Source: Clostridia bacterium (lineage in GTDB: Bacteria > Bacillota > Clostridia > UMGS1883). Taken from it: a stretch of DNA of 59,447 nucleotides. Location of the stretch: positions 1 to 59,447 of the forward strand of contig JBJDXJ010000018.1 in assembly GCA_051866635.1 (NCBI GenBank), in the 5' to 3' direction. Numbering within the stretch: position 1 is the first letter of the stretch; each line of letters opens with the position of its first letter. Position numbers and translations under genes: made by a program. The notes under the pieces are model-generated. The model made no database searches and was not told the origin of the DNA. It was given only the letters and a program-made list of their open reading frames with translations. This document shows positions 1 to 3,239 of this stretch, piece by piece.

Positions 1-30
1 TTATCAATAAATTAATCCAAATTTATGGGA

Positions 31-46
31 GTTTTGACACAGTCTG
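31..46. repeat. IS-end-like 16-bp arm (GTTTTGACACAGTCTG), inverted partner of 991..1006
   Basis: Reverse complement CAGACTGTGTCAAAAC matches 991..1006 CAGACTGTGTTAAAAC at 15/16. Resembles IS1182-type termini from memory; any element body would lie left of the window. Confidence 0.7.
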
Positions 47-59
47 ACGTCCCCATTCG
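47..59 (+). repeat. ACGTCCCCATTCG half-site
   Basis: Exact reverse complement of 1609..1621. Confidence 0.85.
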
Positions 60-60
60 T

Positions 61-561
61 CTAATGGTAAACTCCAGCATCCCATGGAATTTCATCGCTG
101 TTTAACATATATTCTTTCATTGTCTCAGGCAATACTTGAATCGTATATAATCCTTCCCTATCGGAATTGTGGTCATCTTGTAGATATACAGCAAACAGTA
201 CTCTGTAAGTTTTTTGAGTATTTGTGACCACATCGCTCCATGCACGCTCTTTCTTTATTCTTTTTCCATCCTTTACCGTTGTGGTAGTAACCCTTACAAT
301 ATAGCTGTGGGAAACAATATCACCATCAACAATATCGAACATATATTCTATATTCTCATCTAAGTTTTTTGCATCTTGTAAAGCTTGTTGAGAGAATAAT
401 GATTTAACTGAATTTACATCTCGATTATTAATAGCATCTATCAAATCTTTAAGGTCTGTTTCTGAAATTGCATTCTTGACATACTTGTTTTCCTCAGTTT
501 TGACACTGCAACCAGAAACAATAATAATAATGCTACATATTAATAACAATATTTTTTTCAC
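61..561 (-). CDS. Lipoprotein, DUF5104-like; putative immunity-type protein
   Basis: GTG start, lipobox IVSG-C, segment AINNRDVNSVKSLFSQQAL...NLDENIEYMFDIVDGDIVS recalls DUF5104 lipoproteins. Confidence 0.7.
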   Translation of the reverse strand: MKKILLLICSIIIIVSGCSVKTEENKYVKNAISETDLKDLIDAINNRDVNSVKSLFSQQALQDAKNLDENIEYMFDIVDGDIVSHSYIVRVTTTTVKDGKRIKKERAWSDVVTNTQKTYRVLFAVYLQDDHNSDREGLYTIQVLPETMKEYMLNSDEIPWDAGVYH

Positions 562-585
562 TATTTATCCTGGTATAATGTAATT

Positions 586-789
586 GACTCATCTAACAGT
601 CATTTACAAATATACCTTTCTCCTTTCTCCTTTCTATCAACCTTCTTTAATCCGTGATTGATTACGGTTTTAAATATTGGTATTATATAAATATGTGATG
701 TGGATTTGTATATTTTTCCTGTGGCTTTGACTACTTTTTGGAGGTTCTTACCACGCCTTGTTTCTAAGTAATGATTAGTTAGATGAGTC
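586..789. mobile_element. 204-bp MITE / internally deleted IS remnant
   Basis: Perfect 12-bp terminal inverted repeats GACTCATCTAAC (586..597) and GTTAGATGAGTC (778..789), extending imperfectly inward; no intact ORF inside. Confidence 0.6.
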
Positions 790-857
790 TTTGAATTCGT
801 ATCTCGTACCAGGTTTTACGAAACAAGTGTTGTGGATAACACATTACATATTTTTTA

Positions 858-943
858 TGTGTAACTGGGGACTGGTCCAAAATTGCACGTTTTAAAAACA
901 GGAAAAAGAAATGTGCAAAAACTGACCCTTCCCCAATTACACA
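858..943. repeat. REPIN-like imperfect hairpin (GGGGAC...TTCCCC type)
   Basis: Arms 858..888 and 913..943 are complementary at 23/31 positions around an A-rich loop. Confidence 0.7.
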
Positions 944-968
944 CATATTTTTTCTATCTTTTCAAGAG

Positions 969-1006
969 AATAGTGCCATAAAATGTACGTCAGACTGTGT
1001 TAAAAC
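969..1006 (+). repeat. Hybrid site: AATAGTGCCATAAAATGT-ACGT-CAGACTGTGTTAAAAC
   Basis: 969..990 matches the reverse complement of 1618..1639 at 20/22; 987..1006 matches the reverse complement of 31..50 at 19/20. Confidence 0.85.
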
Positions 1007-1012
1007 ATCTGC

Positions 1013-1504
1013 CTAAGCCCTTCCAAACACAGGAATCTTATTGAAAAATACCCAGTAACCCAAATGGGTTGTGCTTTTGTTCTCAAGTTCCTCAAAAAAA
1101 GCATCTCTCTTTGCACTCTTCAAATCAAAAACACATAAACCTTTATAATGTTCCTCTTCTCCTGGTTTTAATTCGTAATTGTCATAAAACTCTACATAAT
1201 CCTCCGTATACACTGTTTTGTGAGGGGGGATATATTTATATTGTTCGATGAAAATTTCTTTAGACGTATTATTCTTTATATGTATATCATACTTGATAAT
1301 AATATAGGAGTCTAAATCATTATCTATTTCCAATATCGAATTCGAAAGATTATGCAAAACATAATCTTTCGAATTTTCTGTTACATCTTCAACGTCAATA
1401 TCTATTATCGTAATTGGATATAATATCGACACTAATCGCGTGGATGCAAAGATAATGATTAAAAACATAAGGAAAACAACAAAAATTTTTACAAGTTTCT
1501 TCAT
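1013..1504 (-). CDS. Hypothetical protein with N-terminal membrane anchor; putative immunity protein
   Basis: 163-aa ORF, AAGGAGG RBS, hydrophobic N-terminus; ATGA overlap with an upstream gene fragment. Confidence 0.75.
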   Translation of the reverse strand: MKKLVKIFVVFLMFLIIIFASTRLVSILYPITIIDIDVEDVTENSKDYVLHNLSNSILEIDNDLDSYIIIKYDIHIKNNTSKEIFIEQYKYIPPHKTVYTEDYVEFYDNYELKPGEEEHYKGLCVFDLKSAKRDAFFEELENKSTTHLGYWVFFNKIPVFGRA

Positions 1505-1608: not shown

Positions 1609-1672
1609 CGAATGGGGACGTATATTCTATGGCACTATTTTATCTTTTAAACTGCCATAACGAAAATTCCCC
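1609..1672. repeat. Intact site (minus strand AATAGTGCCATAGAATATACGTCCCCATTCG) forming the left arm of a second REPIN-like hairpin
   Basis: GGGGA 1614..1618 pairs with TCCCC 1668..1672; TATGGCA 1628..1634 pairs with TGCCATA 1653..1659. Confidence 0.75.
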
Positions 1673-1740
1673 TTAAATTCCACTGAAACTCTACAACCGT
1701 CGACATGACTGAAATCGCACGTTTTAAAAGCGGAGAAAGT

Positions 1741-2627: not shown

Positions 2628-3239
2628 TCAATCCCGTGATTTTATAACAATAATACTGCCCTCTTTAATTTTTATAACTGCGTCCTTGTCTGTAAATTCG
2701 TTGCTCACGGCAATAGATTCTGAAAATTTCAAGTCGTAATCATCAAGTGAATACTTTAAGTTTTCCAATGTGACGCCTTTAACCGTGCCGATTGGTATAA
2801 GGGAAAGGTGAGTGTTGTCCTTTTTTATAACGGTATCTTTTTGGATTACGGTAATGGTGTTATGCTCATCAATCAAATATCCTTGTCCTCCGCACTTTGC
2901 AATATATTCCAAAAGCCCAATATTTGAAAGAGTGTGGTCAAGCCTTGTGCCGCTACAGCCCAAAAGGCAGATTTCTTTATATCCTCTATCTAACGCTTCA
3001 GTTACCGCAATATGCGTGTCTGTGTAGTCCTTTTCAGGGTTAAACCGCCTTACTTCGCCTGTTACATTGCCCTTGTAGGAGTCAAAATCCCCAACTGTGA
3101 GATCCGGCGTTATGCCCATTTTTTCCGCATGTGCAAAGCCCCCATCGGCACAAATTATATAATCGCCCTTTTCAATAAAAGACGAAATATAATTATAATC
3201 TGCAATACTGCCGGCACTGATTACAACCGCTTTACTCAT
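2628..3239 (-). CDS. thiN: Thiamine pyrophosphokinase
   Basis: ADGG, GDFDS, EKDYTD and GTRLDHTLSN motifs; follows rpe. Confidence 0.95.
   Translation of the reverse strand: MSKAVVISAGSIADYNYISSFIEKGDYIICADGGFAHAEKMGITPDLTVGDFDSYKGNVTGEVRRFNPEKDYTDTHIAVTEALDRGYKEICLLGCSGTRLDHTLSNIGLLEYIAKCGGQGYLIDEHNTITVIQKDTVIKKDNTHLSLIPIGTVKGVTLENLKYSLDDYDLKFSESIAVSNEFTDKDAVIKIKEGSIIVIKSRD

Follow-up and report, generated by a model that had tools for sequence, protein, structure and literature searches.

Three short sites near the start of contig JBJDXJ010000018.1, from a Clostridia bacterium of the UMGS1883 lineage (GenBank assembly GCA_051866635.1), are probably joints between the ends of IS1182-type insertion sequences (ISs) and a hairpin of the repetitive extragenic palindrome (REP) type, making them ordinary debris of mobile DNA. 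An earlier note on this DNA, made from the letters alone, had taken two of them for an attL/attR-like pair belonging to an integron-like gene-capture system. The window analysed is the entire contig of 59,447 nt, one of 63 in a 2.33 Mb assembly that is 96.6% complete; contigs of this genome (G000) are given C-numbers, the window being C18, other genomes G-numbers and individual loci L-numbers.

Each site is composed of two arms around the tetranucleotide ACGT. The first, at 31-59, has the reverse complement (P') of an arm termed P at 31-46, ACGT at 47-50 and an arm R1, CCCCATTCG, at 51-59; the second, at 969-1006, has an arm L1 at 969-986, ACGT at 987-990 and P at 991-1006; and the third, read on the minus strand from 1639 to 1609, consists of L1 (1639-1622), ACGT (1621-1618) and R1 (1617-1609). 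All three were exactly as the earlier note had described them, as were the direct ACGTC cores that start at 47 and 987, a spacing of 940 bases. The two P arms are complementary at 15 of 16 positions. Within the window, P has two matches with at most two mismatches, compared to 0.03 expected, and none of 100 shuffled sequences reached this number. When up to three mismatches were allowed, L1 was matched twice, both times perfectly, against 0.42 expected (8 of 100 shuffles reached two), whilst ACGT plus R1 has two exact matches and one with two mismatches, against 0.71 expected. The joint at 969-1006 recurs, in the form L1-xxGT-P, at C59:5153, C45:5253-5290 and C6:58566-58603. The features that make up these sites are as follows.

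1-46, minus strand: left (promoter-side) end of an IS1182-family element, with P at 31-46 and the interior of the IS at 1-30; the contig breaks within the element
47-61, plus strand: right half of the REP hairpin, ACGT plus CCCCATTCG(TC), the reverse complement of the head GGGGACGT plus stem
969-990, plus strand: left half of the REP hairpin, L1 plus ACGT, truncated by the IS end; the joint is shared with C59, C45 and C6
991-1030, plus strand: 40 bp remnant of an IS1182-type right end, with P at 991-1006 and 24 further bases common to C55
1597-1640, plus strand: uninterrupted REP hairpin (intact L1-ACGT-R1), with a fold z score of -3.34 and no mismatches to the REP 18-mer
1616-1692, minus strand: body of the 'L-element', a repeat of around 80-125 bp with the REP hairpin at its end and a gene just upstream; assigned from repeat copies

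The P arm as a terminal inverted repeat of the IS1182 family

The P arm is the 16 bp terminal inverted repeat of a DDE-type IS of the IS1182 family, as the earlier note had correctly guessed. At locus L042, two P tips, which are inverted repeats of one another at 15 of 16 positions, enclose an element of 1,601 bp, the 449 aa product of which has matches to DUF772, DDE_Tnp_1 and DDE_Tnp_1_6 and scores 373 bits against the NCBIfam IS1182 profile (NF033551, cut-off 270 bits). A class-wide IS1182 protein search of 401 genomes, of which 399 were scored and two returned no score, gave a match in 15 of the 399, and from it came three further P-type elements, of 1,702, 1,660 and 1,658 bp, with CAGACTGTGT tips. 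P or its first 10 bases bounds all four elements of 1,601-1,702 bp (L042, L134, L136 and L140); the last three were recognised by likeness to L042, which alone among the four has an NF033551 score, and L140 is without a long open frame. An exact search for the 20-mer ACGT plus P outside this genome, in one genome per species, found it on 10 contigs, eight from Bacillota metagenome-assembled genomes (MAGs) and two from Pseudomonas, the latter of which look like chance matches.

Both ends in the window have counterparts elsewhere. Positions 1-48 are 97.9% identical to C45:5223-5270, 85% identical to C58:78367-78428 and 87% identical to G002:C33:42851-42904, and all of these copies continue into a TTGATA-17-TATAAT promoter, a ribosome-binding site and an ATG; this promoter-side layout agrees with that of the full-length elements L042, L134 and L136. 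At the second joint, positions 981-1030 share 88% identity with C55:5622-5671, the two sequences diverging after the 40th base of the IS end. The other P copies of this genome, those on C45, C58 and C55 together with 991-1030, are fragments.

A related element is present in G003, a genome of the same genus, where an IS1182-family element of 1,576 bp (416 bits) lies inside a duplicated 29 bp terminator hairpin, 197 bp from a solo P-type end. At this locus (L051; G003:C3:1-3550) the entire terminator hairpin is repeated on both sides of the element, and long palindromic duplications of this type would explain flanks that resemble extended inverted repeats. Of 80 metagenome loci containing relatives of the G003 transposase, 43 had both ends and their flanks, and in 10 of these 43 the flanks were inverted-complementary at no fewer than eight of 10 positions, compared to 2% under random pairing.

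L1-ACGT-R1 is a REP-type hairpin

The L1-ACGT-R1 sequence is a REP-type hairpin, belonging to a family that is spread through the order. In the uninterrupted copy, positions 1622-1635 pair with a long 5' stem arm at around 1593-1603 (AGAATAT core at 1597-1603), the head GGGGACGT being at 1614-1621. Folding positions 1590-1650 as DNA gave -6.4 kcal/mol, as good a value being reached by one of 200 shuffled sequences; at the two interrupted sites there was no fold (z = +1.14 and +0.37). A 13-mer of the half REP at 47-61 recurs at 1609-1621 on the minus strand. The L-element at 1616-1692 has 83% identity to C63:45517-45592 and 75% to C38:217323-217398, and in both of these copies ATGGCAC closes the hairpin, five nucleotides past ACGT or ACCT.

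Order-wide motif searches, covering 87 genomes, found 72 matches to an 18-mer of the REP in 29 of them, with at most eight in any one genome, compared to 26 matches for the reversed control. The exact 13-mer AATGTACGTCCCC is present in 60 of the 72, often in clusters. Across the wider set of repeats the architecture is that of a stem, a loop with GGGGACG(T/G) and a complementary stem. The stems covary between subfamilies (GACAAA/TTTGTC, GCCAA/TTGGC and ACCAA/TTGGT), and an exact stem of at least 5 nt was found in 21 of 49 REP instances, as against 5 of 49 after shuffling. Because of this architecture, R1 with ACGT corresponds to the REP head and part of one stem, whilst L1 holds the other stem. 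A candidate pattern search for L1' in the genus gave no more matches than its reversed control, and was discarded as noise. In this genome GGGGACGG is enriched (51 occurrences, with 16 expected) and belongs to several families of small palindromic repeats.

At all four loci examined (in G070, G017, G065 and G025), inverted REP copies 825-826 bp apart enclose a gene of 245-247 aa. The product scores 54-61 bits against the Pfam family Y1_Tnp (cut-off 23); among NCBIfam models it is best matched by that of the REP-associated tyrosine transposase (RAYT), at 76.6 bits, just below the cut-off of 80. RAYT homologues were found in 30 of the 87 genomes of the order, and in six of nine other genomes of the genus. 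Motif and gene were both present in 17 of the 87 genomes, with the motif alone in 12, the gene alone in 13 and neither in 45, counts which, the genomes being related, are descriptive. A further 14 RAYT-like loci had GGGGAC[GC] hairpins on both sides of the gene in eight cases, on one side in three and on neither in three. Presumably a RAYT-type transposase of the Y1/HUH class disperses the REP. At L205 (G070:C54:24800-26900), L206, L202 and L207, inverted clusters of AATGTACGTCCCCA, the innermost copies of which are 825-826 bp apart, surround the 245-247 aa Y1/HUH gene, with tandem CGTCCCCATTTGTCTC units adjoining.

Two Y1_Tnp sequences are present in this genome: a divergent open reading frame (ORF) of 180 aa (C38:210558-211097) and, at the end of C46, a pseudogene resembling IS200. 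The former adjoins four to five GGGGACG hairpin units, which are different from the REP of the window. Within C38:210186-211097, four tandem GGGGACGGCGTCCTCGACGTCCC units lie upstream of this ORF and a fifth copy lies inside it, encoding VVGDGVLDVP; the same unit is also found at C58:30546 and C31:14330.

Probable joints of IS ends with REP halves, and the segment between them

Twenty-four distinct P tips were pooled from this genome, its relatives and other Clostridia. GGGGACGT is found directly outside the tip, at seven or more of its eight positions, in 12 of the 24, and ACGT or xCGx in 21, eight of the 24 tips having been fetched by a pattern that contains ACGT but not GGGG. The other common flank in this genome is the opposite half of the REP, an AATGT-ACGT-like sequence (C18:991, C59, C6, C45 and C55); it adjoins either end of the IS, which is what an IS entering a single kind of hairpin in either orientation would produce. 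RAYT homologues were present in all five of the genomes checked that have related IS1182 transposases. The region around the second joint, C18:860-998, shares 97% identity with C59:5044-5182, up to a divergence eight bases into P.

Two composite loci were noted in the course of this comparison. In G002, of the same genus, the left end of a P-type IS is accompanied, within 1 kb, by a copy of the REP and by part of a RAYT gene (amino acids 3-76), at C33:42501-43468. At C38:218895-218955 there is a perfect-looking hairpin of 60 bases, composed of GGGGACTT, 13 bases of P, 18 bases, 13 bases of P' and ACGTCCCC; the outer architecture of this miniature element is the same as that of the REP doublets forming hairpins (REPINs) that flank RAYT genes.

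The explanation we favour starts from a REP with a short stem and a loop carrying the head GGGGACGT, or ACGTCCCC on the other strand. An IS would land in this loop at the ACGT beside GGGG, leaving, to judge from the joints, one ACGT on each of its sides, such that half a REP would then be found on either flank. Site 31-59 would represent the left end of one IS copy followed by the right half of the REP, the assembly having broken within that copy; site 969-1006 would be the left half of another REP copy followed by the 40 bp remnant of an IS right end; and site 1609-1639 would be a REP that was never hit. We infer the order of these events, the 4 bp duplication and the movement of the REP by a RAYT, whereas the identities of P, the REP and the neighbouring features are established by the comparisons given here. 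The alternative raised in the earlier note, of an IS1182-like element inserting into copies of a repeat at ACGT with subsequent deletion, is largely supported.

Since both P tips point at the 940 bp segment, this lies between two IS ends rather than inside a transposon. It is chromosomal DNA and not a cassette. The following features were identified in the segment and just beyond it.

61-561, minus strand: DUF5104 lipoprotein gene, 166 aa, with a lipobox-like N-terminus and a Pfam DUF5104 score of 83.4 bits (cut-off 27)
565-857, plus strand: left end of an IS110-family element, non-coding and no longer followed by its transposase gene, recognised by likeness to G033:C113
858-942, strand not assigned: small palindromic repeat, resembling a miniature inverted-repeat transposable element or REPIN, with GGGGAC...GTCCCC termini and copies elsewhere
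1013-1504, minus strand: membrane-anchored ORF, 163 aa, with its last six codons and stop inside the IS-end remnant

The lipoprotein gene represents chromosomal cargo of an ordinary kind, located between repeats. A copy of 62-571 at 95.5% identity (23 differences in 510 bases) is found in another context on a metagenome contig. The adjacent IS110-type end is 89% identical to G033:C113:36216-36492, where it precedes a 394 aa ORF with scores of 123 bits for DEDD_Tnp_IS110 and 70 bits for Transposase_20. Around 290 bases of it occur at 85-99% identity on many contigs from four gut metagenomes, several of which continue past 855-857 into letters that include an ATG. By analogy with the IS110 elements described in the accessible text of PMC11208160, it may encode a bridge RNA; Rfam gave no match for it, a scan of 1-2700 returning two sub-threshold microRNA matches only, and a comparison of 560-860 with plasmid and phage collections likewise found nothing. 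The small palindromic repeat has copies at C59:5044-, C59:2938-2996 and C6:58460-58543, and also in G007, G009 and G006.

No Pfam family matched the 163 aa ORF. Its C-terminus, VFGRA, was considered as that of a transposase, which it probably is not, the stop codons of full-length elements being 69-176 bases from the tip. The R1 side of the unit 991-1617 was likewise considered as a decayed IS left end and rejected, the alignment being no better than those with shuffled sequences (43 of 300 reached its score). Whereas the lipoprotein gene has R1 at its 3' end, for the 163 aa ORF the R1 arm is found upstream of the 5' end, hence the two 'units' are without a common cassette anatomy.

Beyond these features, the thiamine pyrophosphokinase gene (window 2628-3239) is the only gene here that is shared with six genomes of the genus, with 70-81% amino-acid identity, and no synteny downstream of it was found in the six. 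In four genomes of the genus the genes downstream of it encode what we read from the sequences as an HD-domain protein, a regulator and a 490 aa ORF product, the last judged SpoIVA-like by its N-terminus. Here the HD-domain, regulator and 490 aa genes are instead on C2 (100-4543), with an extra 399 aa ORF between two of them, hence the neighbourhood has been rearranged.

Alternative explanations and related systems

A number of observations weigh against the insertion of an IS into REP loops as the origin of these joints. With both P tips facing the 940 bp segment, this origin requires a second copy of the IS, and one of the two must have been reduced to 40 bp. Searches with the L042 protein and NF033551 found no IS1182 transposase in this 96.6%-complete assembly, hence no P arm here can be connected with an active IS of the same genome. 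The right-end piece is 40 bp long both in C18 (991-1030) and in C55 (5632-5671), and the left-end piece is around 128 bp long in both C45:5140-5268 and C58:78285-78412, stopping a few bases past the ATG; random deletion does not explain such equal lengths in independent fragments. The REP 18-mer has only four copies in this genome, in which the 245 aa type of RAYT was not found. Furthermore, the contig with the 95.5% copy, of 1,624 bases and from one gut metagenome, joins approximately 885-942 to 62-571, the letters between being not known, and could represent the REP before IS insertion, another copy of the small repeat or the joined form predicted by the earlier note. Finally, L134 and L140, two of the four P-type elements of full length, are bordered on the outside by inverted and not direct repeats, which argues against a simple 4 bp duplication and would allow GGGGACGT to be the outermost part of the IS end.

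In this last case GGGGACGT would complete a 24 bp IS end instead of being a target, L1 would be the tip of a second, related non-autonomous element with an identical outer 8 bases, and the joints would be tip-to-tip nested insertions by members of one superfamily, overlapping in ACGT. Such an arrangement would account for GGGGACG(G/T) being outside P in elements of several genera, for the perfect 7-8 bp inverted repeats that flank L134 and L140, and for the small P hairpins at C38:218895-218955 and L045 having GGGGAC.T or ACGTCCCC on both sides; in addition, GGGGACGT alone is not over-represented in the genome (17 occurrences against 24.6 expected), and L1' and P have CTnTGnCA in common after ACGT. 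However, a related IS1182 subfamily with the same CAGnCTGT tips has diverse flanks without GGGGACG, palindromic flanks being found at the 10 of 43 loci with both ends (from the 80) mentioned above, GGGGACG heads hairpins that flank RAYT genes in the absence of any P sequence, and five P tips of this genome adjoin AATGT-ACGT-like flanks rather than GGGG. We therefore consider it unlikely that the head belongs to the IS. It is quite improbable that the hybrid arms were instead made by a Y1/HUH (RAYT-like) transposase, breaking single strands at the REP head and joining them anew, in which case the DNA between heads may leave as a circle and re-enter elsewhere; such a process would resemble the idea of the earlier note, but with an enzyme of a known class. 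Every joint is at the same four bases within the conserved head, the three joints can be read as the halves of three palindromes in cyclic permutation, the metagenome contig sets approximately 885-942 beside 62, and the unit shared by C18:860-998 and C59:5044-5182 starts at a GGGGAC head and ends eight bases beyond ACGT, all as cutting at the head would have it. Yet P has been shown to terminate an IS of the DDE type, the empty P palindrome was not recovered from any of the 87 genomes, R1 is at opposite gene ends in the two units, and REPs are normally downstream of genes according to the accessible part of PMC3733652, which by itself gives a cassette-like look. Nor is the stretch covered well enough for a circle search in any sequencing run: among the 24 public runs listed, the best share of the window's sampled words was only 0.09, and in four gut metagenome runs only parts of the window were covered, with no spanning contig. 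The particular form of this process in which arms are swapped at the ACGT of GGGGACGT, with gene-sized DNA (the 940 bp or a whole IS1182 copy) circling out and entering another REP, strikes us as decidedly improbable. The 'circle junction' sequence predicted by the earlier note is the REP itself, with its 72 matches in 29 of 87 genomes, hence its presence is uninformative about circles.

An artefact of assembling a MAG at repeats might have produced the inside-out order of the two joints, given that the contig starts 30 bases inside a repeat, that the assembly is in 63 contigs and that the 97% copy of 860-998 on C59 ends near a contig end. This seems very unlikely, as only around 14-20 bases are common to the two P joints, which is in our judgement too short to mislead the usual assemblers, and 47-1700 is otherwise unique in the genome. 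The first 25-31 bases of C18 matched no other contig of the assembly, and none of its small contigs, tested as a collapsed IS, encodes a transposase. The least credible origin is that proposed by the earlier note, a capture system with a dedicated recombinase acting on ACGTC-core sites, which we regard as extremely improbable in spite of the small genes separated by sites with a common core. The note's statement that the window has no recombinase or transposase is true for the three families searched (Phage_integrase, Y1_Tnp and the IS1182 transposase); profile searches of the whole genome gave nine Phage_integrase and two Y1_Tnp matches, none of them on C18, such that all nine tyrosine recombinase candidates are off this contig. 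The core of the predicted empty P-ACGT-P palindrome is absent from all 87 genomes at up to three mismatches, and the orientation of the genes relative to the arms is inconsistent. The arms of the supposed pair are explained by halves of an IS1182-family inverted repeat and of a RAYT-type REP. Hence the integron-like interpretation fails on the recombinase, on the empty site and on the cargo.

A cassette-like appearance can arise without any capture system, given that REPs are usually found just downstream of genes (PMC3733652, in its accessible part). One 4.5 kb contig, L208 (G035:C33:1-4506), has five REP copies in the same orientation, with a conserved left extension of around 28 bases, and six small ORFs, one of them lipoprotein-like, in an array that looks cassette-like; three of the five REP copies are 25-75 bases downstream of a small gene.

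With these results the claim of a novel system for capturing genes falls away: an IS end beside half a REP has the appearance of the 'hybrid att sites'. In its place, an IS1182-family lineage of gut Clostridia appears to insert, precise to the base, in the loop of a single REP family, and this GGGGACG-headed family flanks RAYT-type genes across an order of Clostridia; the REP-RAYT systems in the literature sampled are mainly from Proteobacteria, with few descriptions from Clostridia among them. Joints between ISs and REPs break short-read assemblies and mimic recombination sites, and recognising them aids the annotation of gut MAGs. If exchange by a RAYT at the REP head were true, it would constitute REP-based shuffling of small accessory genes in gut Clostridia.

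Integron attI/attC arrays resemble the window in having short genes separated by repeated sites with a common core. Unlike integrons, the window lacks IntI, its genes do not each end, at the 3' side, in an imperfect palindrome of the attC type, its arms belong to an IS and a REP, and the same arms were not seen with variable cargo between them. A closer likeness is to IS1272 and TnSha1 of staphylococci: in the accessible text of PMC4923244 and PMC5678879, IS1272, of the IS1182 family, targets hairpins or inverted repeats with no classical duplication. These elements and the P-type IS share 16 bp terminal inverted repeats, a single DDE transposase and insertion into hairpin or inverted-repeat structures, and duplicated left-end pieces and a neighbouring gene that one IS copy can move are further points of resemblance (PMC4923244; PMC5678879). 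They differ in that the flank of the P-type IS is nearly always the REP head GGGGACGT with ACGT on both sides, whereas the IS1272 targets described there are without a common primary sequence; moreover, the hosts of the P-type IS are gut Clostridia, and this genome has no intact copy.

REPs themselves are known targets of ISs (PMC1525189, as far as its available text extends). ISPpu9, described in the available portions of PMC1525189, PMC12288879 and PMC8450116, is similarly found within repetitive extragenic palindromes; it is an IS110-family element, whereas the IS here is of the DDE-type IS1182 family, and the REP family and host phylum also differ. The repeats resemble the REP/REPIN-RAYT systems of PMC3733652, PMC3337134 and PMC3116915, to judge from their accessible sections, in having a Y1/HUH gene between inverted hairpins, which in those systems are multi-copy and mostly downstream of genes, and Group 1 RAYTs have been reported in Clostridia (10.1101/119735, available in part). 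In contrast to these systems, the copy number in this genome is low; the conserved GGGGACG is inside the loop or on its 5' side, whilst the REPs in those sections have GTAG at the foot. For CGTC-tagged REPs, the available part of PMC3733652 reports no dedicated transposase and names no Firmicutes. Assuming that the published tag is 5' of the stem, CGTC leads into the hairpin in those repeats but faces away from it, on the other strand, in the present family, which we have therefore not filed with them. The system works like the hairpin targeting of IS1272 combined with a REP-RAYT repeat family.

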